DNA of 64,000 nucleotides from a virus (Duplodnaviria; Caudoviricetes): the IMG/VR virus record IMGVR_UViG_3300008267_000012; one strand, 5' to 3'. How positions within the stretch are numbered: position 1 is the first letter of the stretch; the number at the start of each line of letters is the position of its first letter. The position numbers and the translations under genes were made by a program. The notes beneath the pieces were generated by a model. The model saw only the letters and a program-made list of their open reading frames with translations. It did not search any database and was not told the origin of the DNA. Positions 7,901-41,157 of this stretch are shown piece after piece.

Positions 7901-7911
7901 AATATTAATTT

Positions 7912-7941
7912 TTAAATGTAAGGGTCATAAGGTGGATATGG
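7912..7941. repeat. 30-bp repeat copy 2
   Basis: See 6908-6937. Confidence 0.85.
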
Positions 7942-11893: not shown

Positions 11894-11896
11894 ATT

Positions 11897-13309
11897 TTAA
11901 TTTAAAATTTCTAAAGTTGATTCATTAATTATTATTGAACTGCCTGAATCGGCTACATCAAATTGTACAGTACAATCAAATACTTGATTTGTTGTTGTTG
12001 TTATTGTTTGATTTTGAGAATATATACCAAATATAACAGGGTCTCCACCAATTGTTGATGGTGGGGCTGTGGGGAATACTATTTTTCCACTACCAAAAAT
12101 TAATCCTGAATTTCTTACCGTAAAAGTAGAATCAATCTCAATATCCCCATCATAAGGATTTATTGACCCAAAAAAACTAATAGTTGATGAACTAGAAATT
12201 ATCGTTGAACCAAGTTTTATTCTAACAATTAGCGTAGTATCAACATTTTGTATAGATATTGTACCTCTAGCATTAAATCTATATTTTCTACCTATTGCTA
12301 ATTCAGGATTATAAGAATTATTTGATGCAAGTAATGTTGTAGTTCCTGTTAAAACTGAGGATATAATTGATGTTTGTGTTGTTGTATTTGAAATTGTTAA
12401 AGATGATAAAGCATTAAATATACCAAATGAATTTATATATCTTGGTTTATTAATACTACTATCATTAATTGATAATGTTCCACCGCTATCTACAAAAATT
12501 ATTTTAGATGGACTGCCTGATTCACCTGTAAATGAGTTGTTATTATAACTAAATAAAAATTCAGTAGTTGTACCACCACGTTGCATTTTTAATTCATTTG
12601 AATTTGTATACCATATAGAACCATCTGATGGAGATATTGGTTCTGTTGGTGATGGTGCAAATTTTATCGTTGTAAGACCTGTTGTTGATGGTGCAAGAAA
12701 GGCAAGTCTTGTATTGGTAACCTGACTTGAAGCTGCTAAATTTAAAGTGCCAATTGTTGTGTTAATATTTCCTGATGCTCCACCACCAAAAATTGTAAGT
12801 CTACCTGATGCTGTTGTGTACATTAAATTTATTGAAGTATTTGTAGGTGCTAATCTAACAAGCGTATTTGCTGTTATTGCCGATGTTGTGCCTATACCTG
12901 CTGAGTTAAATAATGCAGATGTAAAACCATTTGCTCCTGATATAGTTCTTGAGAAAAGTGTTGTTCCTGTTATTCCTGTATAAACTTTAGCACCACCACC
13001 TTGATTTGAAACTGTATTTACAACTGTTCTGCCTCTAACAACTACTATTTCACCATCATCATTTATAGATATACCAACTTCATTTCCACCTGATAAATTA
13101 TAAAATGCTAATGTATCATTTGATGATACTGTTGTTGTTAAACCGCAAAAAACTCCTGTTCCTGTTCCAACATTCCTACCGCTTATAATTATACCACTAC
13201 CACCTCCTGATGAAGTTGCTGATATTGCATAACTATTTCCTGAAGGATAAATAGTGATATTTGGTCCTGCTGTAAATAAATTCCCTAATTGTCTATAACT
13301 TAATGGCAT
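11897..13309 (-). CDS. Tail fibre-like protein, paralogue of 13325-14686
   Basis: N-terminus MPLSYRQLGNLFTAGPNITIYPSG vs MPISFRQAGNLFVAGPNIVIYPSG; GxNVGTG repeats; C-terminal GRKYRFNARG...TLEILN. Confidence 0.7.
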   Translation of the reverse strand: MPLSYRQLGNLFTAGPNITIYPSGNSYAISATSSGGGSGIIISGRNVGTGTGVFCGLTTTVSSNDTLAFYNLSGGNEVGISINDDGEIVVVRGRTVVNTVSNQGGGAKVYTGITGTTLFSRTISGANGFTSALFNSAGIGTTSAITANTLVRLAPTNTSINLMYTTASGRLTIFGGGASGNINTTIGTLNLAASSQVTNTRLAFLAPSTTGLTTIKFAPSPTEPISPSDGSIWYTNSNELKMQRGGTTTEFLFSYNNNSFTGESGSPSKIIFVDSGGTLSINDSSINKPRYINSFGIFNALSSLTISNTTTQTSIISSVLTGTTTLLASNNSYNPELAIGRKYRFNARGTISIQNVDTTLIVRIKLGSTIISSSSTISFFGSINPYDGDIEIDSTFTVRNSGLIFGSGKIVFPTAPPSTIGGDPVIFGIYSQNQTITTTTNQVFDCTVQFDVADSGSSIIINESTLEILN

Positions 13310-24901: not shown

Positions 24902-27900
24902 TTATTTAAGTTTTCTAAAGCCGTATCTATCAGAGAAGTAATTATAGTTCTTTTTAATTTCAGGGAATGGTAAATCAATATCATACATTCTAAGTCTTTG
25001 TATCTTTCCATAGAATGAACCATCAAAATTCTCTTCAATAACAGATTTAATTCCTCTATTGTATAATATTTCAGTACTGATAGTATAAGAAGTTGTTCCT
25101 GTAAGGTCAACTACATCATATTCACGGAATGAAATATCATCAAAGTAAAAGTTATAGTAAGATGTTATTGCTGTTGAATTTTCAAACTTAATAATAGGTG
25201 TATAAGATGTATATGCATTTATTTCGCTTGGTGTTACAAAATCAATTGATAAATAAGTCCATGTATTTGCAGAACTAATTGTATTATAAGTTGTAGTTGT
25301 TAATACCTCAATTTCAGAATCTAATGGATTAGTAAAATCAAAATAAATACCCTTTTCTTCATTTGGTAAAAATCCATTATCATCATAAAAATAACCACTT
25401 AATATATATCTCTTTTTAGGTTTTATTTCTAAAGGATTTTCAAATATTAATAAATTATTTGTTAATGAAGTAAATGTGGTTGCTGTTGATGATGTAATAG
25501 AATCAGGTATTAAATTATACTCACTAAAAGTATAGTTATCAATAAAGAATTTATAACTTTCTGTTATTGCTGTAATATTACCTACTTTTATAACAGGAGT
25601 ATAAATTGTAAATGATGATAATACTTCAGGTGTTGTAAACTCAACACTTAAATCAACCCAAGCATTTGATAAAACACTATCATTATATGTGATTGATGTT
25701 AAGATAATATTTTCACCTGATAATGTAGGTTCAAAATCAAAATAAATATTCTTTGATTCTCCACTTAAATAACTATTATTATCGTAGAATTTAGTTGAAA
25801 CTGTATATTTTTTAGCAGGATTAATATTTATATCTTCAAATTTAAAGATATTATCCGTTAAGGATGAATATGTTAAGCCTGTAACAATATCTTGTTCATA
25901 TAATTTAAAATCATCAAACTTAAATCCATAAATTGATGGGAAGCAATCACCAAAATCAACATTTACACCTAATGTATAAGAAGTTGCTCCTGTGATTATT
26001 GATGGTGTTTTAATTTCTGTTCTAAGTGTATACCAAGTATTGAAAGAATCTGAATTTGTGTATGCTGTTTTTCCAAGAAGTTCATGTTCTGAATCTAAAT
26101 TCAAGAAATCTATATCAACATACTTGTATGTACTTGTAAAACTAAAGAAATCATTAAATCTTGTTTCAAGAATATATACTTTACTTGGATTTATTGGTTT
26201 TTGGTCAGTAAAAGTAAAGATTGTATTAGATGGTGAATTAAATGTATTACCTGTAAGGTCGGTATTTCTTACATTTAAAATAAATGCAGATGGATTACCA
26301 ACTTCACTAAATGGTAGTGTTTCTAATGTTCCATCAACTAAATCAATTGTAATACCTGATGTAATTCCAACTGTATGTCCACTATCTTCAAATTCACCAA
26401 AATTAGCATCATTTAATGTTAATGTGTTTGATGTATATTGAGTTATAACAAGTGGTGGTAATGCAAGTTTAAGTGAACTATTTCCTGAGAAATATTGCTC
26501 TGTTGATACTTCTAGTATTGAATTTATTGTTTCGCTTGATACATTTTCAGTTGAGGATTCAAATGTTTTACTATAGCCTGTATTATAAACATAACTAAAT
26601 CCTGTTAATGAAAGCACAGGTAATAAATTATATTCTTCAGTATAAATATCATCAAAATAAAACTTATAACTTTGATTTATACCTGATGGATTATCAACAA
26701 ATACATATGGTGTATATGATGTGTTACCTGTTATTTGTGTTGGTGTATTAAATTCAATTTTTAAATCATTCCAAACACCTGAAGTTGTTGATGTTGTGTA
26801 AGTTAAGGATGAAACAAATATATGTTCAGAATCTAATGGTGGTAAGAATCCTATATAAACACCTTTTGTTTCTCCTGTATTGTAACTATTATCATCAAAA
26901 AATTTAGCACTAACAGCATATTTTTTATTAATTTCAGGTGTAAAACTTGATAATGTCAATAATGAATTTGTTATTGAACTAAATGTAAAAGATGTAAATC
27001 CACTTAAAGGATAATTTGTAATTGTAAAATTATCAAAATAAAATTTATAATTTGAACTTATTCCACTCTTATTATATAATTTTGCAACAGGAGTATATGT
27101 TGTAGAGCCTGTTAAAGCACTAGGAGTTATAAACTCCAATGATAAATCAACCCAAGTTTGAGAAGAAGTTGTAGTAGTATATGTTAAAGATGATATAATT
27201 ATATTCTCAGAGTCTAATCCGTTAAGAATTTCTAGTATTACACCCTTTTCTTCATTTGGTAAATAACTATTGTCATCATAAAATTGAGTATTTAGGGAAT
27301 ATTTTGTATCGCTTGTTATTGTAAACGAACTAAAATTAACTAAAATATCTGTTGTTGATGACAATGTAAATGAAGTATAAGTATCAATCGTTTCATATGA
27401 TAAATAATAGTTATCAAAGAAAAAATTATAACCTTGATTATTAATAGTTAAAGATGTAACAGTCTCACCGCTTGTTCCACCTGTAAAAATTAAAGTTGTT
27501 GATGATGGTTCAGCTAATTCATTTTCATAATCAATACTTGTTGAAAATTTATAAATACTATTACCAGTCATTATTGGTGGTGTTTTAAACACATATCTTA
27601 ATTTTGTCCAAGTATTTGCTGATGTTGTAGATGTATATGTTTCAGCGGATAAAATAAGAATTTCAGGGTCTAATGTAGGAATCGTATCTAAATAAATACT
27701 TTTATTTGAACCTGTCCAAGTTTGTGCAATATTTTGTGTATATGCTGAATAATTAATTACATCTCCACTAGCATTTGTTCCTGTATAAGCAGTTACAAAT
27801 ACAGTTTGACCTGTAGCCGTATAGTCATATGTGTAACCTTCATAATAATAATATGCGTTTGGTAATAATGTAATATTATTTACAAAATAAAATAAGTTTT

Positions 27901-30900
27901 TATCAATACTAAAGAATGGAGCATAGCTATCTTGTTGTGGATATGGTGCAACTCTAAGACTTACTGAACCACTTAATACAGGATATACTTCATAAAAATA
28001 TGCTGCCGTATTATTTGTGTTAATTCCATTGGATAAAAATTCAAATGTACCACTATTACCATTTGTAATAACATTACCTGTGTAGACAGTAAGACCTGTA
28101 GTTACTGTGATACCTGAAGCATCACCAAATAATTTCAATGATGTTGAACTTGTAAAATATTGATTTGAAAATTGTTCTGTGCTTGATGTTAAAGTTGCTG
28201 CACTTATTTCTGTTGTAAATCCACTTATACTACCTTCAAAATCATATAATATTGTACCTGCTGAAACATATTCATATATTGTTTTAGTGGATGATGATGA
28301 GGCAGATAAAATTAATGAACTCAATCCTGAAAAAGTTTGAGCAGTTGTTGATGTAATTACGACATCTAAGACATCTGTAGTTACACCGCTAATACTAGTT
28401 TCAAAATCAATTGTATATGAAGAGTTAAAAAAATATGTATAACTTGTTGCATAACCAGTTAAATAGGTTATTGATGTAATTGGGTCAAGAGGTTTTAATT
28501 TTAAAGAATAATTACCTGAATGTGTAAGTGCTGTGCTTGAGTCTATTATAATATCAATAACATCACTTGTAATACCTGTTATATTATTTTCAAAAGTTCC
28601 ATTATCACCATTTAAGAAATAATTTGTATTTCCTGATACATTGTATTGTTCAAATACAAAATCATCAAAAATAAATTTATAATCAATTGAAATACCTGTT
28701 GGATTTACAAATTTAATTACAGGTAAATAACTTGTATTTCCTGTTATTACGGATGGACTTAGAAAGTCTAATTGTAAATCAGTCCAAGTTTGACTTGGTG
28801 TTGTTGTCGTATATGTTAAAGAAGATATAACTATATTTTCAGAATCTAATCCACCTGAGAATGTTAAATAAACACCTTTAGTTTCTCCTGAATTATAACT
28901 ATTGTCATCGTAAAATTTACCTTTGTAAACGTATTTCCTATCAGGAATAATATTTACAGGATTAAATATCAATAAGTTATCACCTGTTGCGCTAAATGTA
29001 AGTCCTGATGTTGAAATAACAGTTTCTAAAATGCTAGGTGAATATTCAATTACTGAGATTTCATCAAAATAAAATTTATAATCATTAACTAAATCAAATA
29101 TAAAACCAACTTCAATAGATGGTAGATAATTTGTAATACCTGTAATTGCTGATGGAGTTGTAAATTCTAATTTTAAATCAACCCATTTTCTTTTTTCAAC
29201 AGTATTGTCATATGTTACTGCTGTTAATACTGTATTTTCAGGGTCTAATCCACCTTGAAAACTTAAAAATACTGATTTGTTATTACCTGTAAAACTATTA
29301 TCATCATAAAACTTAGCAGTATAAATATATCTAGAATTTGGATTAACTGTTATACCTGTTGTACCAAACATTGGTGTTGGTAAAGTATTAATTAATAACA
29401 AATTATTAGTATCCGATGTGTATGATAATGTAGATGCGCTAGAATTACTTAATTTAAGTGTTGTTTCACATTGATATGGATGGTCAGCACTTATTTCAAG
29501 TAATCCATTATAGACTTCAGTAATTACATTTCCAGCTTGATAAATATCATTTATTAAATTTGTACTTGCACTAATGGTTGTTGAACTAACTACTGTGGTT
29601 GGATTTACATTCATTAATAAGACAGAATTATCTTGAGATAAAACCGTACTAAATAAATTATATAAAACATCGGTAGTTGCACCTGTTGTCGCAGCACTAA
29701 GAGTATTTGTATCGCCATATTCTATTTGACTCGTACCACCTGTTATTTGCACATCGTATTCATCAAATGTAAAACTATCAAAATATAATTCATAAAATCT
29801 TGTTCCTGCCGTTAAATCTTCAATTTTTACAGCAGGTGTATATGCCGTTAAACCTGTAATAACTTGTGGAGTTTGAAATTCAAAAATTATATTAGACCAG
29901 GTATTTGGTAAGTCCTCAGTTGTTAAATATGTATGTGATGTGATTACGGTTATTTCTGAATCTAAATTTTCAATAAACCCAAGAGATATTTCATTTATAT
30001 AACAATTAAAGCTATCATGGTCATATAAATTAGCTGCATAAATATATCTTTTATTAGGATTTATTGAAATTGGTTGTGTGAATCTTAATAGATTATCTGT
30101 TATTGAACTAAATGTAGATGCTGTATAGTCATTATAAGTTAATAATAATGAACCACTTCCTGAATAAACTTGAGTTGAACTGCTTAATAATAAACTATTT
30201 ACTAAATCTGTACTTACATTATTAATTGCGGTTTCAAATGTACCAAAATCACCATCATTAAATAAAGTTTGACCTGTTACTAATGTGTAAGAGTAGCCAC
30301 TTAAATTTTCAATACTGTAACCACTTTGATAAATAAAATCTCTACCTGTAATAATATTTTCAGTTACAGTTGCTGATGAGAATGCATCAACATATGAATG
30401 TTTTAATCCCCAAGTACCCCCACCCCAATTTATTGTATATGGAATTCCAATTTGTCTATCAGCATCAATGCTTAATGGTCTTAACCAAAAGAATTCTTCT
30501 GTGTTATCAACTTCATGAAATAATTTACCATTTACATAAATCTTAAAGAATCCATCTCTTCTTGAAACACAATCAATTAAATTATCACCTTCAAAATCTT
30601 TAATTTTTTTACAATATCTAAAGGTGGTAACAATATTTGTCCAACCTGTAGTTAATATTGGATTATCACTTTTATATTCAGTTACAAAGCCTGATGTTAC
30701 TAAATATCTTAATGATATTGTTTTATCATCGTTGAATTTTAAACCTGCTGCATTATATTCAATATCAGGTAAATAACTATTTGTATCATATGTTATTTTT
30801 GATGTATCATCATTTGCCCCTGAAAATGCAATATTGAATTTATTTTCAGATTTAGCACCTAAATATAAAAAGAAACCATCTGTAAATGAATTAATATTAT

Positions 30901-31351
30901 CAAAAGTATCTTGGTCAATATATAACCAAGTATCTATTGTAAACCCATTTTCTGTTCTATATTTTCCAAGTTGAAAATATTTATCATGTAATTTAAAATA
31001 AGTGCTTAAATAACCTCCTGATAATTCAAATGAATTACCTTCATTACCTGAATTTGTTGTTATTTGTGGGAATGTAGTATTTCCCTCACCATCGTTATAT
31101 CCTAATCTTTGAAAGATTAAATTTCTATCTCTTCTTGTAAAAGTTTTTGTTTGTGTTAAAGATGTTGCAAGACCAAAATCGTACATTGTTTGACCATATC
31201 CTGTTAAAGTAAGGTCGGACAAAATATAATTTTCCCAAAATGTTAAACTAGTTACAGAAAATCCTGCATTATTGTCAAACGACTTTATATTTGAAATGTC
31301 AAAATCAAATATAATGTTATCTTTGGTAAGTCCTGTATTATTGAATATCAT
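24902..31351 (-). CDS. Giant virion protein (2149 aa): split LamG domain containing nine nested CBM4/9-like modules
   Basis: LamG N-part (FTIDTWLY, GWTNIVTTF, FKIYVNGKL, INWGGG) and LamG C-part (FYGKIQRLRMY...EIKKNY) flank nine A-halves (GxFE...SGxxSLxL) and nine B-halves (xxKKY...FYDDNS...W..L..EF.TP...F.FDDF). Confidence 0.85.
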   Translation of the reverse strand: MIFNNTGLTKDNIIFDFDISNIKSFDNNAGFSVTSLTFWENYILSDLTLTGYGQTMYDFGLATSLTQTKTFTRRDRNLIFQRLGYNDGEGNTTFPQITTNSGNEGNSFELSGGYLSTYFKLHDKYFQLGKYRTENGFTIDTWLYIDQDTFDNINSFTDGFFLYLGAKSENKFNIAFSGANDDTSKITYDTNSYLPDIEYNAAGLKFNDDKTISLRYLVTSGFVTEYKSDNPILTTGWTNIVTTFRYCKKIKDFEGDNLIDCVSRRDGFFKIYVNGKLFHEVDNTEEFFWLRPLSIDADRQIGIPYTINWGGGTWGLKHSYVDAFSSATVTENIITGRDFIYQSGYSIENLSGYSYTLVTGQTLFNDGDFGTFETAINNVSTDLVNSLLLSSSTQVYSGSGSLLLTYNDYTASTFSSITDNLLRFTQPISINPNKRYIYAANLYDHDSFNCYINEISLGFIENLDSEITVITSHTYLTTEDLPNTWSNIIFEFQTPQVITGLTAYTPAVKIEDLTAGTRFYELYFDSFTFDEYDVQITGGTSQIEYGDTNTLSAATTGATTDVLYNLFSTVLSQDNSVLLMNVNPTTVVSSTTISASTNLINDIYQAGNVITEVYNGLLEISADHPYQCETTLKLSNSSASTLSYTSDTNNLLLINTLPTPMFGTTGITVNPNSRYIYTAKFYDDNSFTGNNKSVFLSFQGGLDPENTVLTAVTYDNTVEKRKWVDLKLEFTTPSAITGITNYLPSIEVGFIFDLVNDYKFYFDEISVIEYSPSILETVISTSGLTFSATGDNLLIFNPVNIIPDRKYVYKGKFYDDNSYNSGETKGVYLTFSGGLDSENIVISSLTYTTTTPSQTWTDLQLDFLSPSVITGNTSYLPVIKFVNPTGISIDYKFIFDDFVFEQYNVSGNTNYFLNGDNGTFENNITGITSDVIDIIIDSSTALTHSGNYSLKLKPLDPITSITYLTGYATSYTYFFNSSYTIDFETSISGVTTDVLDVVITSTTAQTFSGLSSLILSASSSSTKTIYEYVSAGTILYDFEGSISGFTTEISAATLTSSTEQFSNQYFTSSTSLKLFGDASGITVTTGLTVYTGNVITNGNSGTFEFLSNGINTNNTAAYFYEVYPVLSGSVSLRVAPYPQQDSYAPFFSIDKNLFYFVNNITLLPNAYYYYEGYTYDYTATGQTVFVTAYTGTNASGDVINYSAYTQNIAQTWTGSNKSIYLDTIPTLDPEILILSAETYTSTTSANTWTKLRYVFKTPPIMTGNSIYKFSTSIDYENELAEPSSTTLIFTGGTSGETVTSLTINNQGYNFFFDNYYLSYETIDTYTSFTLSSTTDILVNFSSFTITSDTKYSLNTQFYDDNSYLPNEEKGVILEILNGLDSENIIISSLTYTTTTSSQTWVDLSLEFITPSALTGSTTYTPVAKLYNKSGISSNYKFYFDNFTITNYPLSGFTSFTFSSITNSLLTLSSFTPEINKKYAVSAKFFDDNSYNTGETKGVYIGFLPPLDSEHIFVSSLTYTTSTTSGVWNDLKIEFNTPTQITGNTSYTPYVFVDNPSGINQSYKFYFDDIYTEEYNLLPVLSLTGFSYVYNTGYSKTFESSTENVSSETINSILEVSTEQYFSGNSSLKLALPPLVITQYTSNTLTLNDANFGEFEDSGHTVGITSGITIDLVDGTLETLPFSEVGNPSAFILNVRNTDLTGNTFNSPSNTIFTFTDQKPINPSKVYILETRFNDFFSFTSTYKYVDIDFLNLDSEHELLGKTAYTNSDSFNTWYTLRTEIKTPSIITGATSYTLGVNVDFGDCFPSIYGFKFDDFKLYEQDIVTGLTYSSLTDNIFKFEDININPAKKYTVSTKFYDNNSYLSGESKNIYFDFEPTLSGENIILTSITYNDSVLSNAWVDLSVEFTTPEVLSSFTIYTPVIKVGNITAITESYKFFIDNYTFSEYNLIPDSITSSTATTFTSLTNNLLIFENPLEIKPKKRYILSGYFYDDNGFLPNEEKGIYFDFTNPLDSEIEVLTTTTYNTISSANTWTYLSIDFVTPSEINAYTSYTPIIKFENSTAITSYYNFYFDDISFREYDVVDLTGTTSYTISTEILYNRGIKSVIEENFDGSFYGKIQRLRMYDIDLPFPEIKKNYNYFSDRYGFRKLK

Positions 31352-31362
31352 TCTATTTTATA

Positions 31363-31371
31363 TATAAATAG
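31363..31371 (-). promoter_or_regulatory. Putative late promoter CTATTTATA in an 8-bp inverted repeat (31351-31373)
   Basis: TTCTATTT-ATATATA-AAATAGAA, whose 3' arm includes the A of ATG 31351. Confidence 0.65.
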
Positions 31372-31404
31372 AAAAATATTCAAAAAATGACGTAAGTATT
31401 TGAT

Positions 31405-33975
31405 TTAATTTTGTAATTCTATAAAAGAATTTCCATTCTCATCTTTATCAACCATAATAAGGTAATCAGGATTGATTATATCGCCATATGCATGTTCAAT
31501 AATTAAAATTTTATCAATATCTTGTTTAACTTTATTCATAAGATTTATAAAGTTAATTGCGTTTCTTTCAGAGAGTTTTCCAAATAGTTCATCAAGAAGA
31601 AGAATATTTGGTCTTGACCTATTATTCATAAATCTTAATGCAAGTCTAAGACAAATACAAGCAAATACTCTTTCCATTCCTGAACCTGAAATAACATTTT
31701 GAATAATTTCAGGAGTGTCTTTCTTTGACATTTGAAAAAAGAGTTCACTATCAAAGAAAACATTAAAGTCAATATCTTCTGTATATCCTTGAAGATACAT
31801 ATTTACTTTTGGAATTAATTTCTTTAATAATGTACTTGGAATGCCTTCTCTGTGAATGCAGTTTTGATATTCTTCTCTGATTAATTCTTGTCTTTGCTGT
31901 TCTAAATACTTTGTAATTGTATCTTTATAGTTTTTAATTTCATTTTCAGCAAATTCAATCTTATATTTAAAATCATTTACTTCTTTTTTCAATGATTCTT
32001 TATCATTTTTAAATTCATTGACTTTTGATTTATATGTATCAATTTTTGATTGAATTTTATTATTCTCTTGAATATAAACTATATTAATATCATATCTTTT
32101 TAGAATATCATTTTTTTGAAAGATTTTTAAGTCAATATTTTCAATATGCATTGGAATATTATCATATTCCTGTTTGAATTTATTTCTTTTTTCAATCTCT
32201 TTAATAATTAATTCAATCTTTGTAATCTTTTCTTTTACCTTAGTGATTGCTACACTTTCTTTTTTAATCTCATCCTCAAAACCTTTTATTAATGACCTTT
32301 TACTTTCAGTCATTAATTCTTTATCTTTAATTTCTTCTTTATATTTATCAATATTTTTATTGATTGCTTTTAAATCTAGTTCATATTTCTTTTTATATGA
32401 CTCTTTTTTAATCTCACCTTTGAATTTTTCAATATTAGATTTTAGTTTATCAACTTTTACTTTGATTGATTCAATTGCATCCTCATCTTTTAAACGATTA
32501 CAACTAGGACAAACTTTACTATCTTCTAATGAGGAAATTTCCCTTTCAATTAAATCAATTTGTCTTTCTAAACCAAGTCTATCATTATCAATTTGAGAAT
32601 CAACTTTTGTTATTGCAAGATTTTCTTTATGGATATATCCATTTATTACTGCAATATCATTTGTAATGGTATTAATTTCTTTATTTAAGTCTTTTATTTG
32701 GTCATTCTTAGAAATTAACCAACCATTGAATGAATTTGATTTTTCCTTTAATGAATTATAAAGTTCTTCATCTAAAACAAACTTATTAAGTTCCTCAATT
32801 TGTTTTAAAAGGTCTTTTTGTGACCTTTTCTTTTCTTCTTTATCATTAATAAGTTTATTAATCTCATCTTTAATTTGATTAATATTTAGATTCGTTAATT
32901 TGGAATCAATTGGTTTTAATGTCTTAATTGTATTCTCAACATGAAGTTCACCATTTGAAATCCTTTCATTTAGAGTATTAATTTTATCTTCCCTATCTTC
33001 TATTTGAGTTTTATAATCCTCAATATAAACTTTTGCATCATCAATAAGTTGATTATACCTATCAACAGATATATTTAAAAGACTTTCTTTTTTATATTCA
33101 TTTTTCTTATAGGCTTTGAATACTTCAAGTTTCTTTTCAAATATATCAAGACCAGTATCTCTAAGAATTGAATCTAAGAATTTAGCATGGTCGGTTGTAA
33201 GAATATCATTTAAAGTATCAGCATTAATTAAGGATTTTGTGATAAATTCATCAAAATCCCCAATTGAATGTTCAATTAACTTTTGAGTATTAGTTTTATC
33301 CTGTTCTGAAAGATTATTTTCATCAATTATCTCACCATTTGAGTCTAATTTATTGAAATAGGTCTTTGTTGAGCATGAGGTAATCTCTGTATGTGTTTTA
33401 TCCCATTTTCTTTCAGTTCTTCTTCTAATGGCATAATCTTCACCATTGATTTCAACGATTAACTGAACTTCTGAATAATCTTTTTTGTTATTGTTGTTGA
33501 TAAATTTATTATCTCTGTTCTTCTCTTTTTTGAGAGTATCAAAGGTAGTACCATAAAGACCATATGTAATAGAGTTTAAAATGTTTGAGTTATGAACTGC
33601 AATGTTATTGGCATAATATTCACCAATACCTTCAACTTGAATATCTACTAAGTCAATAGTGGTTTGTGGGCATGTTGAAATTCTAAAAATATTTTCAATT
33701 CCATCTTTAGTTTTGACTTTAATGAAAGACCATTCATTTTTAATTTCATCAAATGATTTAAAAAGACCTAAATCTGTTCTAATAAGATGGTCTTTTGAAA
33801 CGGATAATCTTTTTCCTTTTTCCGTTTCTAATGTCCAATATTGGGAATCTTTTGAAGTGACATCATAGGCAAGAATTTTTGAATACCCACATGGGGTTTC
33901 AACCTCAATGTTTAATTCAAGAAGTAAGTCTTTTAATATTCTAAGATTTTCAATCTTTATCTGTTTCTCTGTCAT
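31405..33975 (-). CDS. sbcC: C-terminal half of fractured Rad50/SbcC (gp46-like) ATPase, fused behind IntC of a split intein
   Basis: After ...YYANNIAVHN the sequence resumes S-NILNSITYGLYG. It has Q-loop region, Zn-hook CPSC, coiled coil, signature SGSGME, Walker B ILLLDE and H-loop IIEH. ATG at 33975; the track's 33999 start is TTG. Confidence 0.93.
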   Translation of the reverse strand: MTEKQIKIENLRILKDLLLELNIEVETPCGYSKILAYDVTSKDSQYWTLETEKGKRLSVSKDHLIRTDLGLFKSFDEIKNEWSFIKVKTKDGIENIFRISTCPQTTIDLVDIQVEGIGEYYANNIAVHNSNILNSITYGLYGTTFDTLKKEKNRDNKFINNNNKKDYSEVQLIVEINGEDYAIRRRTERKWDKTHTEITSCSTKTYFNKLDSNGEIIDENNLSEQDKTNTQKLIEHSIGDFDEFITKSLINADTLNDILTTDHAKFLDSILRDTGLDIFEKKLEVFKAYKKNEYKKESLLNISVDRYNQLIDDAKVYIEDYKTQIEDREDKINTLNERISNGELHVENTIKTLKPIDSKLTNLNINQIKDEINKLINDKEEKKRSQKDLLKQIEELNKFVLDEELYNSLKEKSNSFNGWLISKNDQIKDLNKEINTITNDIAVINGYIHKENLAITKVDSQIDNDRLGLERQIDLIEREISSLEDSKVCPSCNRLKDEDAIESIKVKVDKLKSNIEKFKGEIKKESYKKKYELDLKAINKNIDKYKEEIKDKELMTESKRSLIKGFEDEIKKESVAITKVKEKITKIELIIKEIEKRNKFKQEYDNIPMHIENIDLKIFQKNDILKRYDINIVYIQENNKIQSKIDTYKSKVNEFKNDKESLKKEVNDFKYKIEFAENEIKNYKDTITKYLEQQRQELIREEYQNCIHREGIPSTLLKKLIPKVNMYLQGYTEDIDFNVFFDSELFFQMSKKDTPEIIQNVISGSGMERVFACICLRLALRFMNNRSRPNILLLDELFGKLSERNAINFINLMNKVKQDIDKILIIEHAYGDIINPDYLIMVDKDENGNSFIELQN
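33589..33975 (-). mobile_element. IntC fragment (~129 aa) of an atypically split mini-intein
   Basis: IKIENL, VETPCG, block B VSKDH, KTKDG, block F LVDIQV, block G YYANNIAVHN followed by Ser+1 (33586-33588). No endonuclease domain. Confidence 0.92.
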
Positions 33976-34525
33976 TTTCAAGTAATGGAAAAATTTCAAT
34001 AATATTATTTACCCTATTGTTATGATTCTCATACTTCTTTTCAGGGTCAAATAAAATAATTTTTGTATTATCAAAAGATAATTCTGATAGTTTAGGATTT
34101 GCAGTTAGTATATAATCAAAATCATCATCAATGTAGTCTACAAATCTATTGTAGAATCTAATTTCATCAAAATAAAATCCTGCTGAAAAGTTTGATATAT
34201 AGAAAGCAGTTAAGTTTCTAAATTTATGTCCTTCTCTTGATATCATTACTATCTTATACCCATTTTCGGATAGTTCAGGATAAATTTGATTTAACTGTGC
34301 AATCAATTCTTTTGATGGTAATGTTGATTTAGCAAACAATTCATAGGAATATTGATACAAGAATTCTTCTAACTCATTACCTTCAAAATTAAATGAAAGT
34401 AATGGATTGAATGGGTCAATTGGATAACCTACTGACCTATCAGCAAACTCAATTTGATAGTATTGTTGAAATTTTTTGATAAAATCCCTTAAAATTCCGT
34501 TTACTTCTATTGCAAAAGTTTTCAT
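33950..34525 (-). CDS. HAD-superfamily 5'-nucleotidase-like protein with degenerate catalytic motif
   Basis: FAIEVNGILRDF in place of the canonical DxDGVLxDF; IVMISRE (motif II); YILTANP. Its 3' end overlaps the IntC-sbcC start by 26 nt. Confidence 0.6.
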   Translation of the reverse strand: MKTFAIEVNGILRDFIKKFQQYYQIEFADRSVGYPIDPFNPLLSFNFEGNELEEFLYQYSYELFAKSTLPSKELIAQLNQIYPELSENGYKIVMISREGHKFRNLTAFYISNFSAGFYFDEIRFYNRFVDYIDDDFDYILTANPKLSELSFDNTKIILFDPEKKYENHNNRVNNIIEIFPLLENDRETDKD

Positions 34526-34529
34526 ATGA

Positions 34530-34537
34530 CAAATATA
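34530..34537 (-). promoter_or_regulatory. Bacteroidota-type -7 promoter box TATATTTG
   Basis: Matches TAnnTTTG; 4 nt upstream of ATG 34525. Confidence 0.6.
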
Positions 34538-34577
34538 AAAAAAATTATCGTATTATATTATCAAATTCAATAAAAAA

Positions 34578-35651
34578 ATGGATAAATTAGAAAAATTAAA
34601 CCAATTATTTAGTGATATTGAAAATAAAAATTTCAATATTTACTTGTATGTTCCTTCTATTCCTGAGAATGTATACTCAATGGCGGTTGAAGAAATATAT
34701 AACATTTGTTATCTCTTAAAAAGGAATAACTATAATGCTTTTCTTATTACAGGTGAAGATGAAAAAGAGCCTGAATATAAGATTCCTTTATATCTATCTG
34801 AAGAACTAAGGTCTTTACCGCATCTCTCACCAAAAAAAGACAATATCAGCGTTTCTCCAAGCGATGTAATGATTGTACCTGAGTTTTTTGTAAATGTAAT
34901 GCATCAAATTTCAGAAGCAAAGATTCAATGTGAAAAGATTGTTCTTTGTCAATCACAAACATATATGCTTGATTCTCTTCCACCAAATCATACTTGGGCG
35001 GCATGGGGATTCAATACAATTATTACAACTTCTGAACAGTTAAAGGAATTTATTCAAAGAAATTCAAGAGTAAATTATAATATTGAATCATATACTATTG
35101 GTATTCCTGATTATTTTAAACCTAAAAAAATCAAAAAACCAATTATTATGTATTTTTCAAGAGAGGATAGTGTAATTAAAAGATTATCAAAGATTTTCTT
35201 TATGAAATATCCTGAACTTTCTTGGGTATTGTTTGAAAGAGTTCAAGGTGGTGAACCATTTATCACAAGAGAAAAACTTGCTGAAAAAATGGGTGAAATT
35301 CCTGTTCTTCTTTGGCTTGATAAGGATGCAGGTTTTGGTACACTTCCACTTGAAGCAATGAAAAGTGGTGCTGTAGTTGTAGGTATGATTCCTGAACTTG
35401 AAAAGGATTATACTAAAGCTGATGATACAGCAGTTTGGTCAAATTCACTTGAAGTGCTTGCTGAACAACTTGGTGTTATTATTAAAGAATGGATGGTTGA
35501 TAATATCCCAACTAATGTTTATGAAAATATGCAAAAAGTTTCAAATCAGTTTACAACTGAAAATCATGAAAAAACACTAATTCAAGCTTTTTCAAACATC
35601 GTTGAAAATAGAAAAAATTTAATTAATCAAGCAATAGAAAATGAAAAATAA
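34578..35651 (+). CDS. GT-B fold glycosyltransferase (GT4-like)
   Basis: DVMIVPEFF, AGFGTLPLEAMKSGAVVVG; paralogue of 48294-49247. Confidence 0.75.
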   Translation: MDKLEKLNQLFSDIENKNFNIYLYVPSIPENVYSMAVEEIYNICYLLKRNNYNAFLITGEDEKEPEYKIPLYLSEELRSLPHLSPKKDNISVSPSDVMIVPEFFVNVMHQISEAKIQCEKIVLCQSQTYMLDSLPPNHTWAAWGFNTIITTSEQLKEFIQRNSRVNYNIESYTIGIPDYFKPKKIKKPIIMYFSREDSVIKRLSKIFFMKYPELSWVLFERVQGGEPFITREKLAEKMGEIPVLLWLDKDAGFGTLPLEAMKSGAVVVGMIPELEKDYTKADDTAVWSNSLEVLAEQLGVIIKEWMVDNIPTNVYENMQKVSNQFTTENHEKTLIQAFSNIVENRKNLINQAIENEK

Positions 35652-36447
35652 TACCTTAGAAAATTTAACAGTAATTATTCCACTTAATAAGTTGGAGAAT
35701 GAATTGGATACTCAATTGTTTAATGTAGCGATTGAATCTATCTTTACACAAAAGAGTGATATCGTTCCAAGCGAAGTAATTATTATTACAAACAAAGAAA
35801 CTAAAGAACAAATTAAAACAGATAGACCTGTTAGTTTTGTTTTGAATGATGAAACTTCTAATAATTATCAAAGTCAAATTAACAAAGCTGTAAAAGAAGT
35901 TAAAACTTCATTTTTTATGATTTTGGATGGTGATGATGAATTTACACCAATTTATTTTGAAAATGTATCAGACCATATGGAAGAAATGTCAAATGTTGAT
36001 ATGTTCCTACCAATTGTTGCAGATGTTACATTAGATAAAAAGATTCATCGCTATATTAATGAAATCAATTGGGCAAAAGATGTAACAAATGATAAACATG
36101 GTTATCTTACAATGGAAACATTGATGAATTACAATCTTGTTTCAATTAATGGTGCTGTAATTAGAAAAGAAAAATTTGAAGAAGCAGGTGGTTTGAAAGA
36201 ATCAATGAAGCTTACTTTTGTTTATGAATTCTTAATGAGATTTACTAACATTGATGGTATTACATATACTATACCTAAGATTGGTTATCTAAGAAAAATA
36301 AACAGAGAAAATTGTTATTTAGCTGAAATGTCAAAAATGGATGGTGATGAAGTTAATTTTTGGTGGGGTTTGGCTAAAAAAGAATATGTTTGGCCTCATG
36401 ATAGAAATAAAACCTATGTAAAGAAAGAAGAAACACCTGTTATTTAA
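35641..36447 (+). CDS. GT-A fold glycosyltransferase (GT2-like)
   Basis: LTVIIPL, QINKAV, FMILDGDD (DxD), GGLKESM, YEFLMRF. Confidence 0.8.
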   Translation: MKNNTLENLTVIIPLNKLENELDTQLFNVAIESIFTQKSDIVPSEVIIITNKETKEQIKTDRPVSFVLNDETSNNYQSQINKAVKEVKTSFFMILDGDDEFTPIYFENVSDHMEEMSNVDMFLPIVADVTLDKKIHRYINEINWAKDVTNDKHGYLTMETLMNYNLVSINGAVIRKEKFEEAGGLKESMKLTFVYEFLMRFTNIDGITYTIPKIGYLRKINRENCYLAEMSKMDGDEVNFWWGLAKKEYVWPHDRNKTYVKKEETPVI

Positions 36448-36449
36448 TA

Positions 36450-37244
36450 ATGACTGAAAATAAAAAGGGTAGACGTGGTAGAAAAGCTAAACCAGGGTCT
36501 ATAAAAGAGTATTTTACTGACGATACAGAAAAGGCTATTATTAAATATAATAGCCCTGACTGTTCGTTAGAAGAAAAAAATGAGATTTATGAGAAACAAA
36601 TTCATAAGGCTCTAAAAAAACTTGCTTATTTTACCGCTAAATCATACTTCCTTTATTTTTCAAAGCGTTATACGATAGAAGATATGGAAAATGACCTTCT
36701 GATTTTTGCCTTCAATAATCTTCATATGTTTAATCCTGAAAAGATTAATAAACATGGTGTAAAATCAAAGGCATTTTCCTATTTCTCTACAATTTGTAAA
36801 AACGAAGCAAAACACATATCTGAAAGAAACTTTAATCAAGATAAATCTAGTGATGATGTTGTAGAAAATCTTGATTTATTTGAAAGAGATTTATCATTAT
36901 CATATTACATTGATGAAAACTTAGATGATTATACCGATACTAACTATATTAAAATAGTTTTTTTGGGTATGTGTAATGAAATTAAAAACAAAATAGAAAC
37001 AGATAAATTATTAAAAGAAATTGATGTTAATATTGGTTATTCATTAATCTCAATAATTGAAAACTTTAAGTATATTAATGAACCAACTGAATCAAAAATG
37101 AGTTTATTTTTTATCAATAATAGAGTTATTGATATGATTTGTGAAATCACAGAAAATAGATATAAAAAACAAGACATTAAAAAATCACTTAAAACATTTA
37201 AATGTGTCTATACAAAACTCAAAGATGAATATATGAATAATTAA
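36450..37244 (+). CDS. T4 gp55-like late-transcription sigma factor
   Basis: YFTDDTEKAIIKYN...EDMENDLLIFAFNNLHMFNPEK...SKAFSYFSTICKN resembles the gp55 region-2 pattern FDPEKS..FAYFTxI..N, by recall. Confidence 0.65.
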   Translation: MTENKKGRRGRKAKPGSIKEYFTDDTEKAIIKYNSPDCSLEEKNEIYEKQIHKALKKLAYFTAKSYFLYFSKRYTIEDMENDLLIFAFNNLHMFNPEKINKHGVKSKAFSYFSTICKNEAKHISERNFNQDKSSDDVVENLDLFERDLSLSYYIDENLDDYTDTNYIKIVFLGMCNEIKNKIETDKLLKEIDVNIGYSLISIIENFKYINEPTESKMSLFFINNRVIDMICEITENRYKKQDIKKSLKTFKCVYTKLKDEYMNN

Positions 37245-37253
37245 CTATTTATC
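37245..37253 (+). promoter_or_regulatory. Putative late promoter variant CTATTTATC
   Basis: 15 nt upstream of ATG 37269; overlapping inverted repeats, one (TTATCTA/TAGATAA) covering the A of the ATG. Confidence 0.45.
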
Positions 37254-37268
37254 TATAAATAATAGATA

Positions 37269-37571
37269 ATGGATGAGTTTAATATTTATGATGGGTTTAT
37301 AGACGACAATAGATTCTCAACACTACCATACTTTAAAATAGATGAGAGTGATACTGATATTTATATTGAATGGAATGTTGGTAATCGTTTAGATAGATTA
37401 GCATATACCTATTATCAGAACGCAGCATTGGGTAAATTCATATTAATGGCAAATCCCCAATACCTATCCGAAGGGGATTTAGATATTGGGGATATTTTAA
37501 GAATACCCATGCCAAAAGAAGATATGTTTGCCATACTAAGAAATAGAATTGAACTCTCAAGGAAGTTCTAA
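37269..37571 (+). CDS. LysM-like baseplate wedge / tail-X-like protein
   Basis: GNRLDRLAYTYYQNAALGKFILMANP...LDIGDILRIP. Confidence 0.75.
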   Translation: MDEFNIYDGFIDDNRFSTLPYFKIDESDTDIYIEWNVGNRLDRLAYTYYQNAALGKFILMANPQYLSEGDLDIGDILRIPMPKEDMFAILRNRIELSRKF

Positions 37572-37808
37572 TCTAACTCCAAGATATCTGTTCTTGATAA
37601 ATTCTATAAATGCTTTTCCTGTTGAGTCTGCATCCTGTAGTTTAAAGTAATCTTCAGGTTTAACATTATCATATTGATATCTTAGATTACCCTTTACGAA
37701 AGTTACATATAAGGTATTGTTAGATGTATCATAAGTAGATGATACAATGTTTGATGAATCATACGTTGCTTCAACGATTCCATCTTCTTGTTTAACACTA
37801 GTTGTCAT
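37557..37808 (-). CDS. KTSC domain protein
   Basis: SSNIVSSTYD..NNTLYVTF..G..YQYDNV...Y..L..ADSTGKAF...IK..Y is the KTSC consensus. Confidence 0.88.
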   Translation of the reverse strand: MTTSVKQEDGIVEATYDSSNIVSSTYDTSNNTLYVTFVKGNLRYQYDNVKPEDYFKLQDADSTGKAFIEFIKNRYLGVRLELP

Positions 37809-38905
37809 AAATTTAGTAATTCTTCGTGTAGTTCTGATATATTATCAAAAGTTTTATTGTTTTCTATATTAAATTTTGTTTTTAATTCTTCAATTAAGTT
37901 TTCACTTGGTCTTTGAACCTCCATTAAAACATCGGTTCTACCCTTTCTTTTAATAGCATCATCAATTTTATCAAGTTCATTAGTTGTTATAATAAATATA
38001 ATATCATTTGGTGTATATATACCATCTAATACGTTTAAAATACAAGAAAGTGAAATTTTAACATCAGAATCTTTCTTTTCTTCCTTTCTGTTGATATCAT
38101 CTAATAAACAATCAATATCTTCAAATAATACAATTGATTTCTTTGGTCTATCAGAAATCAATGCAATAAGATTTGCATCTGTCATATCTTTAGATAAGTT
38201 AATTGCCATTATATCTCTTTTTGTATAATTAGATATACCTAATGATAATGATGATTTTCCTGTTCCTGGAGGACCATAAAAAAGATATGTTCTTTTATAT
38301 CTAATTCCATACTTATCATATTTTTCTTTTGATGAATTAAACCTATCTAAATCCTTTTTAAGGAACTCTGATACATTATTGTCAAGATAAATATTGTCAA
38401 ATGTCTTATTTATAACCTTACCTGCACATCTAATTTCACCATTAAAGTTATAAAAATACTTTATATATTTATTACCATAGTTATTATCAACATAATTCAT
38501 TAATTCTTTCAAAATAGACTTATTCCTACAAAAAATCATAAACATATGTTTATTATTCTTATATGGTGTCATACTATTTTGAATATTTTCAGCATTTTTC
38601 AACACTAAGAACCTATTTCCTTTAAATTTAAAATAAATAAATCCTGAATTATAAAACATGTTAACATCAAAGTTATCTGAACTTATAAAGTTATCATATA
38701 ATGTTCTATAATAAAGATTTTTAATAGACTCTTGTTTTTCAGATAAAACAAAGTTTTGAAATGAATAAAAGAAAAAAGAACTCTCTTCAATCTTCATTGA
38801 ACAAATGAGTCTATCTCTTAATGTTGTTAAAACAAAAAGAAAGAATTGTTTGAAGTAAACTAATGTACCTCCAAGAATGAGTGTTATTAATACTGTTTTA
38901 TCCAT
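37805..38905 (-). CDS. BCS1-like AAA+ ATPase with N-terminal hydrophobic anchor
   Basis: Walker A GPPGTGKS, Walker B IVLFEDIDC, sensor TTN, Arg finger RKGRTD; hydrophobic N-terminus VLITLILGGTLVYF. Confidence 0.85.
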   Translation of the reverse strand: MDKTVLITLILGGTLVYFKQFFLFVLTTLRDRLICSMKIEESSFFFYSFQNFVLSEKQESIKNLYYRTLYDNFISSDNFDVNMFYNSGFIYFKFKGNRFLVLKNAENIQNSMTPYKNNKHMFMIFCRNKSILKELMNYVDNNYGNKYIKYFYNFNGEIRCAGKVINKTFDNIYLDNNVSEFLKKDLDRFNSSKEKYDKYGIRYKRTYLFYGPPGTGKSSLSLGISNYTKRDIMAINLSKDMTDANLIALISDRPKKSIVLFEDIDCLLDDINRKEEKKDSDVKISLSCILNVLDGIYTPNDIIFIITTNELDKIDDAIKRKGRTDVLMEVQRPSENLIEELKTKFNIENNKTFDNISELHEELLNL

Positions 38906-40243
38906 TTATTTTAAAAATTCAGGTAAATATCCAAGTTTATTTATTATTTCTTCTTCGTTAAATCTAATATTGATTTTTGTTTCGGGATGAACGCATTTAC
39001 CAACCTGATTTTCTCCGTAGATTTGAATAATTCCATTCTTATCTGTTAAATCAAGTTCATATCTTTCACCATGCGATTTAAAGTTATCAAGTACAATCTT
39101 TTTAACTTTCCAATCATAGAATTGATTCTCCACATCTTTTTCAATCAATGATGTTATTTCATTATCAAGTGATAAAACATCCTTTATAAAGTCTTCTTGA
39201 TGGTTTTTAGCTTTCAAAAAGTTTATAAACTCCTGTCTTACACTATCATCATTGTTTAAATCAATTGTTTCATCAAATTCTTTAATCTTTAAAGATTTAT
39301 TTAGAATCTTAGATTTATCAAATTTAATAGTGGCGAATTCGCCATATTTAGATTCTAAATGTTTCTTAATCTTTTGTTTATTTTCAACATTAAATGTTGA
39401 ATATTGGTCCATCCAATGAATCTTAATATGATTATGTTTTCCAACATTTTTAAGTTCAATATCTAGATTTTGATAATCATAATCTTCATTGATATAGATA
39501 TTAAAGTATTTATAATCTGAGATTATTTCTTTCTTTTCAAAAGTTTTTGCTTCAATATCCCATAAAAGATAACCATGAAAAGCATTATCACCTTCACCGT
39601 AATTGGTACAATATAATGACGATGGGTAAGCAAAAAACTCTCTTCCATTTTTTTGATATGATTGTTGGAGATGTATATCTCCTGCCATTACAATATCACC
39701 TTTAAAATCAGCAAGAGAAACAATATTACTATCGGTATGGTATTGTCCATTTTGTAGATAACATCCATTAATTGGGTCATGGAAAAGGTCAATATAATAC
39801 TTATTATTATTGCGCTTTTCTTCATTGAATTCAAGCCAAGGGGATTTTCTATCAGGGTGATACCAAACAGCGAAAACAATATTATCAAGTTCAAAAAAAC
39901 CTGTTGAATCATAGTAGTGTATATTAGGATTGTTAATAATCTCAACAAGCATCTTGATTGATGACATTCTGTTGAGATTTGATTTCATTATATCGTGATT
40001 ACCATCAATAATAACCACAGGTGCTATCATAGCACAAGAAGTCAAAAAATCTCCTGCAAGGACATTGATTTCATTAAAAGGTTTTACATAGTTGTGGAAT
40101 AGGTCACCTACAATTACAATCAAATCAGGTCTGTCCTTGATTAGGGATTTAATTGTAAGACTTGAGATATGTTTTTGCTCTGCTAATCTGTCCAAATTAT
40201 TTTGGAAGTGGATATCAGCAAGATGAGCTATTTTCTGAATCAT
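38906..40243 (-). CDS. sbcD: Mre11/SbcD (gp47-like) nuclease fused to the first ~40 aa of Rad50/SbcC and the IntN fragment
   Basis: Phosphoesterase motifs ADIH, VGDLFH, DGNHD, FHDP, AGDIH, YPSS; then WKVKKIVLDNFKSHG...IYGENQVGK (Rad50 beta1 plus Walker A up to Lys), then CVHPETKINIRF...stop. Confidence 0.93.
   Translation of the reverse strand: MIQKIAHLADIHFQNNLDRLAEQKHISSLTIKSLIKDRPDLIVIVGDLFHNYVKPFNEINVLAGDFLTSCAMIAPVVIIDGNHDIMKSNLNRMSSIKMLVEIINNPNIHYYDSTGFFELDNIVFAVWYHPDRKSPWLEFNEEKRNNNKYYIDLFHDPINGCYLQNGQYHTDSNIVSLADFKGDIVMAGDIHLQQSYQKNGREFFAYPSSLYCTNYGEGDNAFHGYLLWDIEAKTFEKKEIISDYKYFNIYINEDYDYQNLDIELKNVGKHNHIKIHWMDQYSTFNVENKQKIKKHLESKYGEFATIKFDKSKILNKSLKIKEFDETIDLNNDDSVRQEFINFLKAKNHQEDFIKDVLSLDNEITSLIEKDVENQFYDWKVKKIVLDNFKSHGERYELDLTDKNGIIQIYGENQVGKCVHPETKINIRFNEEEIINKLGYLPEFLK
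38909..38995 (-). mobile_element. IntN fragment (29 aa, Cys1) of an atypically split intein
   Basis: CVHPETKINIRFNEEEIINKLGYLPEFLK starts immediately after Walker A GK; block A pattern C-V-x-x-x-T-x-I. Confidence 0.88.
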
Positions 40244-40247
40244 AATA

Positions 40248-40255
40248 CAAATATA
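40248..40255 (-). promoter_or_regulatory. Bacteroidota-type -7 promoter box TATATTTG
   Basis: 4 nt upstream of ATG 40243, inside the inverted repeat AATCATA/TATGATT (40238-40260). Confidence 0.6.
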
Positions 40256-40260
40256 TGATT

Positions 40261-41157
40261 TTATGGGTTCATATTATCATAAATTTTATTAATTTTATTT
40301 TCCAATAACTCAAATTTAGAACCTACTTCAATTGGTTCATCCCATTTGTTATGCCAATGCCATGTAAAAGCACCATCAAAAAAATCTACATAACCAATAT
40401 TCTTAAATGCATAATCTAGTGTTGTATTTTCAAAACCCCATTCAGAATTAAACCAAACTCCTGGTAATACAAATAAATCATTTTTATTGATATTGGAGTA
40501 TAATCTATTACCCCAAGAAGTTGTATTTTTATTTGGTGGTATTTTTTTAAGTATTTCTAAAAATTCTAATGATAAACTAGATTCTTTTTCTAATCTCATT
40601 ACTGCACCATTCATAGTAATATTAGGTTCAAAGTCACTAAATCCTGATGTTCCCCATTGATAAAGGAATTCTAAATTATTCAATGGTCTCATATTTCTTA
40701 ATACTAAAACATCCATATCAATGTAAAAACCACCGTATTTATAAAGTATTAAAAGTCTAAAAACATCACCCTCTAAATAACATAAATCATCATATATATT
40801 TTCATTTTTTAGATAAATACAATCTTCTAAAATTGTATCTTTTATTTCATCATATAAATTCCAATTTTTTAAATTTACATATTTTGAAACTTCTTTAAAA
40901 AATATATTTTCACTTAAATCAACATTTGACCATAAATTAATTTCTAAATTTTCTAGTTCATTAGAATGTGATGTTATAATTGATTTTAAAACAGCTAATT
41001 GTTTTCTACCAAATTCTCTAGGTACTCTCCAAAAACAATGAAAAACTAGTTTATTTTTATTGTCATTATTTATATTTTTAGCATACTCTAAAGATTTTAA
41101 ATAACTAACCTTATCGGGCTTATATAAATTTATATTATTATCTATTAGTTTTAACAT
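40261..41157 (-). CDS. GT32-like (alpha-1,4-glycosyltransferase, DxD sugar-binding) protein
   Basis: DVFRLLILYKYGGFYIDMDVLVLR, NGAVM, FTWHWHN. Likely ATG at 41157. Confidence 0.85.
   Translation of the reverse strand: MLKLIDNNINLYKPDKVSYLKSLEYAKNINNDNKNKLVFHCFWRVPREFGRKQLAVLKSIITSHSNELENLEINLWSNVDLSENIFFKEVSKYVNLKNWNLYDEIKDTILEDCIYLKNENIYDDLCYLEGDVFRLLILYKYGGFYIDMDVLVLRNMRPLNNLEFLYQWGTSGFSDFEPNITMNGAVMRLEKESSLSLEFLEILKKIPPNKNTTSWGNRLYSNINKNDLFVLPGVWFNSEWGFENTTLDYAFKNIGYVDFFDGAFTWHWHNKWDEPIEVGSKFELLENKINKIYDNMNP

Follow-up and report, generated by a model that had tools for sequence, protein, structure and literature searches.

How does a phage obtain a working Mre11-Rad50 (SbcD-SbcC) nuclease-ATPase if the corresponding gene lies in two pieces separated by 4.9 kb, neither of which contains an intact ATPase site? 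This question is raised by the IMG/VR virus record IMGVR_UViG_3300008267_000012 (Duplodnaviria; Caudoviricetes), a 91-kb linear viral contig with a CheckV completeness estimate of 65%, whose AT-rich 3′ 64 kb (~26% GC; hereafter the window) were analysed here. An earlier note on this DNA had proposed that the two proteins are rejoined by a trans-splicing split intein that interrupts the phosphate-binding loop (P-loop, Walker A motif) of Rad50. The evidence summarized below indicates that the locus very probably encodes a working class-1 intein, naturally split and of the atypical type with a short N-terminal half (IntN), inserted between the Lys and the Ser of Walker A in a single-chain SbcD-SbcC, and that the two proteins form a trans-splicing pair.

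The layout claimed for both genes proved exact to the residue. The N-fragment comprises the SbcD part, the start of Rad50 up to the Walker A sequence GENQVGK and a 29-residue, Cys-initiated IntN followed by a stop codon, and it was aligned along its whole length to the fused metallo-phosphoesterase profile phrog_35725 (profile positions 6-481 of 1376). The first 129 residues of the C-fragment are not Rad50 and represent the remainder of a mini-intein (the C-terminal half, IntC), after which Ser130 and the rest of Rad50 follow; residues 130-848 match phrog_77 (SbcC-like, E 2e-30), the tail of phrog_35725, the Pfam model SbcC_Walker_B and archaeal Rad50 structures in PDB. The C-fragment frame is open up to a TTG codon at 33999, and the ATG at 33975 (MTEKQ) is the start common to all relatives. 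All nuclease and ABC-ATPase motifs are kept, including the phosphoesterase motifs, Walker A and Walker B, the signature motif, the H-loop and the CxxC zinc hook. As had been claimed, Walker A is whole only once both host segments (exteins) are joined, and neither protein alone has an intact ATPase site.

Comparison with uninterrupted homologues, which the earlier note had named as a check, located the junction precisely. An uncultured 735-kb megaphage (LR756501; locus L001:6001-9609) encodes an intein-free SbcD-SbcC homologue of 1202 amino acids (aa), to which the N-fragment aligns over residues 1-415 and the C-fragment, from its residue 130, over residues 414-1201. Because the two fragments align to consecutive parts of this homologue, Lys416 and Ser130 correspond to its adjacent residues K413 and T414, with no residue lost or doubled. 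The insertion is absent from the megaphage protein and the exteins abut exactly at GK|S, so that the joined sequence reads GENQVGK-S with a full Walker A motif, in a protein of the predicted 416 + 727 = 1143 aa. Uninterrupted fused SbcD-SbcC proteins (phrog_35725), which have the same single-chain nuclease-ATPase architecture, also occur in Tenacibaculum phages PTm1/pT24 and Chryseobacterium phage MA9V. Identity of these proteins to the N-fragment is 25-37%, and that of the LR756501 homologue to the C-extein is 29%. Unlike the window locus, the fused genes of these large phages consist of one open reading frame (ORF) without an intein.

By both sequence profile and fold, the two inserted pieces are halves of one class-1 intein. 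When 1.84 billion representative proteins were searched with IntC by phmmer, 57 matches were obtained, and a profile built from 30 of these sequences matched the PDB chains of gp41-1 (4e-16), VidaL (5e-13) and NrdJ-1 (6e-13) as well as 32 further chains (35 in all), nearly all of which are inteins or intein-like Hint domains (BIL). The AlphaFold2 model of IntC has a predicted local distance difference test (pLDDT) value of 94.7; when it was compared with PDB by Foldseek, the top 39 matches at E≤1e-3 were all inteins or Hedgehog/Hint domains, and the best superposition was on VidaL (template-modelling score 0.81, root-mean-square deviation 2.2 Å). Eleven of the 57 matches are contiguous mini-inteins of 135-178 aa at an identical GK|C...HN|S site. 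Two of these contiguous forms (P0004 and P0019) reside in SbcD-SbcC fusions, and seven others are in gp46-like proteins with Walker A near residue 40. Of the 234 six-frame ORFs of the window, a hidden Markov model (HMM) of the contiguous inteins matched only the two fragments: profile positions 1-28 fall on the tail of the N-fragment (E 4e-5) and positions 32-163 on the opening part of the C-fragment (E 2e-30), a match that greatly exceeds chance. The first five positions of this HMM are extein (Walker A), and part of the small IntN score therefore stems from the host motif.

The features of a class-1 intein are present, namely Cys1 directly after GENQVGK, the block B SxxH, the block F Asp, the block G His-Asn and Ser at position +1. 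Both halves are on separate ORFs with one extein each, with a stop codon after IntN and a conserved ATG before IntC. Modelled with AlphaFold2, the contiguous P0004 intein (pLDDT 92.9) has a loop at the position of the split, preceded by two short helices and followed by the strand and helix with which IntC opens; among contiguous relatives this surface loop varies in length from 0 to more than 30 residues. Since the split falls after block A and the alignment to the fused VidaL chain starts at the first residues of IntC (VidaL residue ~21-23), the split site is the atypical one, between block A and block B, with an IntN of 29 aa and an IntC of 129 aa that carries block B. The atypical short-IntN class has been defined previously (PMC10189870).

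If the interrupted sbcCD gene were broken and decaying, the two ORFs would be non-functional remnants, as might be suspected of a gene whose halves are separated by unrelated genes. However, comparison with ten related IMG/VR loci points in the opposite direction. In six of them (L003, L004, L007, L008, L009 and L011), N-fragment and C-fragment enclose the same intervening genes in identical order, with C-fragment identities of 72-92%, and the distant relative L010, whose IntN is only 17 aa long, shares the arrangement at identities of 53% (N-fragment) and 40% (C-fragment). Both ORFs are intact in every relative. Cys1 is invariant in the ten loci and in the 11 contiguous relatives, and Ser+1 in all relatives; Cys1, S60xxH63, D108, D111, H128, N129 and Ser+1 do not vary among the related loci down to 40-53% extein identity, and His63, Asp108, Asp111, His128 and Asn129 are invariant across 30 family members. 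Mean pairwise ratios of nonsynonymous to synonymous substitution rates (dN/dS) are 0.085 for the N-extein, 0.126 for IntN, 0.200 for IntC and 0.153 for the C-extein; inside IntC, the motif-bearing parts have values of 0.10-0.15 and the central loop region 0.43. Thus, both intein halves are under purifying selection with their catalytic residues intact. Considering also that the enzyme motifs are preserved, that the split persists between such diverged lineages and that SbcCD is near-universal in jumbo phages (PMC7824862), decay is scarcely tenable.

These comparisons also bear on whether the separation is an artefact of assembly, with the halves adjacent in the true genome, which has to be considered for any contig assembled from a metagenome. 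A misassembly, named beforehand as an outcome that would overturn the proposal, was not borne out, since at least seven independent metagenome contigs, assembled from different samples and differing in sequence, share the split layout. The sequence itself was found in sequencing runs from several freshwater and lake studies. One Logan contig, which may come from the source sample, spans 31167-40600 with zero differences, and a run from another study contains identical pieces, one of which crosses the boundary between the 191-aa ORF and IntC. Even if the halves were adjacent, each would keep its own stop or start codon, and the probability of an artefact or chimera is close to negligible.

According to the trans-splicing mechanism proposed here, two precursors would be made from separate genes, one of 445 aa (SbcD, the start of Rad50 and IntN) and one of 856 aa (IntC and the rest of Rad50). 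The 29-aa IntN would contribute Cys1 and the first β-strand and dock on IntC, which carries blocks B, F and G, to give a complete HINT fold. An N-S acyl shift at Cys417 and trans-esterification of the acyl group onto Ser+1 would follow, after which cyclisation of Asn129 and an O-N shift would leave ...GENQVGK joined to SNILNS... in a 1143-aa enzyme with an intact P-loop. We infer that the halves associate in vivo. In the predicted complex of the IntN side with IntC, a weak-scoring model, the interface comprises residues 414-428 and 437-444 of the N-fragment chain and residues 14-26, 57-64 (block B), 107-112 (block F), 120-128 and Ser130 on the IntC side. This is consistent with a rebuilt HINT fold in which the conserved IntN tail would pack on the N-terminal helix of IntC.

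The predicted interface would also fit the main rival explanation, in which the intein halves no longer splice and serve as a non-covalent dock that holds the two pieces of Rad50 together. Such docking has a precedent in the split NrdA of phage Aeh1, which is assembled via interaction domains derived from a mobile element (PMC3045599). However, residues needed only for the chemistry (Cys1, the block B His, the block G His-Asn and Ser+1) have stayed the same in deeply diverged relatives, and an unspliced 158-aa domain wedged between the Walker A residues Lys and Ser would disrupt the loop in which the ATP phosphates and Mg2+ are bound. Docking alone is therefore unlikely.

Several observations weigh against a functional trans-splicing pair. 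The predicted complex scored 0.60, compared with 0.00 for the best control, and scores of up to 0.60 are rated as weak support (51 of 78 solved complexes and 2 of 108 mismatched pairs attained the mark used). Block B of IntC holds Ser at a position that is usually Thr. Intein profile searches of both fragments, another check named in the earlier note, gave a divided result: Pfam contained no Hint or Intein model matching either whole fragment at E≤0.1, so that family profiles were needed, and with these and the contiguous-intein profile both halves were matched. A search of sequencing runs found no RNA run that contains the stretch, and the spliced product is a prediction from sequence and models. 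In addition, all the genomes are incomplete fragments (CheckV estimates are 30-52% for three related contigs), and a second, intact sbcCD elsewhere in the genome is possible. A second complete sbcC combined with decayed intein residues at this locus would have spoken against the proposal; only one Rad50-like gene was found in the 91-kb contig of the window and in each of the related 170-, 129- and 93-kb contigs, and the intein residues are intact. As the 170-kb fragment is estimated to be 52% complete, a genome size of ~300 kb is suggested, and this phage of an uncultured freshwater lineage is probably a jumbo phage.

Coordinates of the two fragments, their motifs and the genes between them are given in Table 1.

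Table 1. Features of the split sbcD-sbcC locus and of the interval between its halves, in window coordinates.
Feature	Position	Strand	Description
N-fragment gene	38906..40243	-	445 aa; SbcD/Mre11 nuclease, Rad50 start to Walker A, IntN; ORF list, Pfam, PHROG and PDB SbcD/Mre11 matches
SbcD/Mre11 calcineurin-like phosphoesterase domain	39671..40234	-	Residues 4-191; Pfam Metallophos E 2.6e-12; motifs DIH, GDLFH, GNHD
Walker A up to Lys (GENQVGK), end of N-extein	38996..39016	-	Residues 410-416
IntN, Cys417-Lys445	38909..38995	-	29 aa; Cys1; block A strand CVHPETKINI; conserved tail ending LGYLPEFLK; TAA stop next
Interval between fragments	33976..38905		4930 bp; seven unrelated genes, 3 on -, 4 on +
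AAA+ ATPase, BCS1-like	37805-38905	-	phrog_7485 E 2.5e-58
KTSC-domain protein	37557-37808	-	After the AAA+ gene
100-aa ORF	37269-37571	+	
264-aa ORF	36450-37244	+	
GT2 glycosyltransferase	35641-36447	+	
357-aa ORF	34578-35651	+	
191-aa ORF	33950-34525	-	Overlaps the C-fragment start by 26 nt
C-fragment gene	31405..33975	-	856 aa; IntC, then remaining Rad50/SbcC
IntC	33589..33975	-	129 aa; N-terminal helix; block B S60-K-D-H63; block F D108/D111 in DLVDIQVEG (108-116); block G in VHN (127-129), H128-N129
Ser+1 codon TCA (Ser130)	33586..33588	-	C-extein nucleophile; Ser/Thr of Walker A GK(S/T) once spliced
Rad50 zinc hook CPSC	32500..32511	-	C-fragment residues 489-492; read from sequence
Rad50 C-lobe motifs	31486..31689	-	Signature SGSGME 31672-31689; Walker B ILLLDE 31588-31605; H-loop His 31486-31503; aligned to archaeal Rad50 3aux

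The measured interval agrees with the separation of 4.9 kb claimed before. The AAA+ ATPase gene starts at the base right after the stop codon of the N-fragment and is, for this reason, probably co-transcribed and translationally coupled with it. Because a block of four genes in the opposite orientation sits between the halves, these would belong to two transcription units. Splicing might then be used as a control point, with the active enzyme formed only when both units are expressed and end-processing gated in time, and the conservation of the separation across the lineage would agree with such a role. However, a scan for promoters and terminators was uninformative in this AT-rich DNA (79 sites vs 72 expected at 26% GC), and the locus L014, in which the halves are adjacent with a 38-bp spacer, shows that separation is dispensable; a control function of this kind is very unlikely. 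No nuclease or homing-endonuclease signal was detected in the seven intervening genes (Pfam at E≤5, PHROGs), and the search for repeats flanking the interval, which could indicate programmed excision or inversion, gave only short, imperfect AT-rich matches.

The interval is plastic in the relatives: in L003 and L004 the AAA+ gene lies ~600 bases further from the N-fragment (11333-11941), L009 has no AAA+ gene at all (11336-11343), and in L010 tblastn found only the four opposite-strand genes. On the other side of the locus, 53 nt downstream of the C-fragment, starts a gene for a 2149-aa protein with many internally similar modules (24902-31351, minus strand), which is syntenic in relatives.

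The locus is not unique and belongs to a large metagenomic family that, at 50% identity, contains ~45 clusters of split Rad50 C-fragments and 11 contiguous ones. Other members have a different layout. In L013 and L020, which are T4-like gp46 loci, an N-fragment of 56 or 68 aa is followed by a free-standing ORF of 388 or 307 aa and then by IntC-gp46, and in L019 and L021, which are of the SbcD-fusion type, the order is likewise N-fragment, free-standing ORF and IntC, with N-fragments that end in LGYLPDFLK or LGFIPDELR, just where the window N-fragment ends. The ORFs between the halves of these four loci are mutually homologous (E 1e-17 to 1e-70) and weakly resemble, by PHROG profile, a Holliday-junction resolvase family and a homing-endonuclease family. 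These loci have the "fractured gene" arrangement of Dassa et al. 2009 (PMC2677866). No remnant of such an ORF was detected in the window by tblastn with the four relatives' ORFs (best E 0.3).

In a maximum-likelihood tree of 55 intein sequences, the 11 contiguous forms do not group together but are interspersed with split ones; even if only well-supported branches are counted, the state must have changed at least four times. The clade of the window (with P0002, P0008 and P0027/L010) is wholly split. Across the family, extein identity to the window spans 19-52%, yet intein identity is 30-41% in every member except P0002 (50%). Among close relatives, the synonymous substitution rate (dS) of IntC is about twice that of the adjacent C-extein (1.21 vs 0.57; 33589-33975 vs 31408-33588). 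The flat intein identity across the range of extein identities and the doubled dS point to movement or evolution of the intein that is independent of the gene in which it resides, and exchange or homing between Rad50 genes is hinted at. A broader interpretation, to which we give somewhat less than even credence, is that behind the window locus stands a large family, as yet undescribed, whose atypically split inteins sit in the P-loop of Rad50/SbcC/gp46 of environmental phages, comprising the split and contiguous clusters and state switches counted above. The endonuclease would have been lost in the window lineage and the obligate pair fixed in two transcription units; assembly of this core enzyme would then require splicing and might depend on its timing.

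In L018, a free-standing GIY-YIG (LEM-3-like) endonuclease gene (7829-8284) lies directly downstream of the sbcCD that holds the contiguous intein P0004. L014 (17514-18286) and L019 (6479-9430) have large terminase (TerL) genes of 983 and 999 aa with a LAGLIDADG_3 domain, and their TerL probably carries a second, endonuclease-containing intein.

Four states coexist in the family: the intein may be a contiguous mini-intein, may be split in a classic fractured gene with a nuclease-like ORF between the halves, or may have halves that are adjacent or far apart. The model in which split inteins originate by invasion and later loss of an endonuclease can thus be tested directly. If the trans-splicing interpretation is true, a near-universal core enzyme of large phages is wholly dependent on post-translational trans-splicing, and this dependence has outlasted the loss of the selfish endonuclease through deep divergence of lineages, making the intein a fixed part of gene expression. 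Atypically split inteins whose IntN can be made by peptide synthesis are scarce and sought after (PMC10189870). The family offers dozens of diverged, probably orthogonal candidates with a short IntN for protein engineering; if they splice, many natural inteins with an IntN of 17-32 aa and Ser+1, each with a matched cis relative, would become available.

Among known systems, VidaL (PDB 6vgv/6vgw) is the closest structural counterpart and a strong profile match; it is a class-1 intein with Cys1 that is split after block A and before the first helix. Its IntN is very short, and the VidaL family is reportedly found in other phage proteins. However, sequence identity between the two is only ~20%, the host proteins differ, and the window intein has an IntN of 29 aa (17 aa in L010) with the additional conserved tail LGYLPEFLK, and Ser at position +1. 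Together with AceL-TerL and PolB16, VidaL belongs to a known class of atypical short-IntN splits. The closest solved inteins by profile, gp41-1 and NrdJ-1 (PDB 6qaz, 8ubs), are phage-derived and come from metagenomes, and both have the canonical split with a long IntN and a short IntC and reside in other host proteins. Cyanobacterial DnaE (Ssp/Npu), a weak fold match to the IntC model (Foldseek ranks 24-25), is an essential DNA enzyme encoded by two distant genes and rejoined by trans-splicing; it differs from the window locus in its canonical split, its cellular host and its insertion site. Naturally split inteins, short-IntN splits, insertion at P-loops, fractured phage genes and halves that lie far apart (as in DnaE) were all known before, so that the mechanism is not new; an intein in this host protein is apparently undescribed, a status that is provisional.

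The literature searched contained no description of an intein in Rad50, SbcC or gp46, in agreement with the earlier note, although coverage of the literature was incomplete, which is why the status is provisional, and the list of VidaL hosts was unchecked. Neither megablast with the locus nor tblastn with IntC gave a match in the GenBank phage collection; thus, no phage record deposited there has a close copy. In PMC2677866, the named host types are gp41, IMPDH, DnaE, NrdA, NrdJ, ligase and terminase, Rad50/SbcC not being among them, and the split inteins include gp41-1 and NrdJ-1. The fractured genes of that paper (Dassa et al. 2009) resemble the window locus in that a phage gene of DNA metabolism is divided, at one locus, into two genes on the same strand, with the halves of a split intein at the break. 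The paper takes a homing-endonuclease gene between the halves as part of the strict definition. The term "fractured gene" used in the earlier note thus fits in that both window halves are on the minus strand, in N-to-C order and original orientation at one locus, but the interval contains seven unrelated genes, four of them on the other strand, instead of an endonuclease gene such as the nuclease-like ORF of the relatives.

PMC2677866 also mentions an SbcD-like gene from Lake Gatun that is fractured by a Vsr-like ORF "without a split intein". The downstream ORF at that locus has nine extra residues, which do not fit an IntC, and the upstream ORF ends with 25 extra residues. Since the IntN of the present family is 17-32 aa long, the Lake Gatun locus may be worth re-examining for an atypical IntN.

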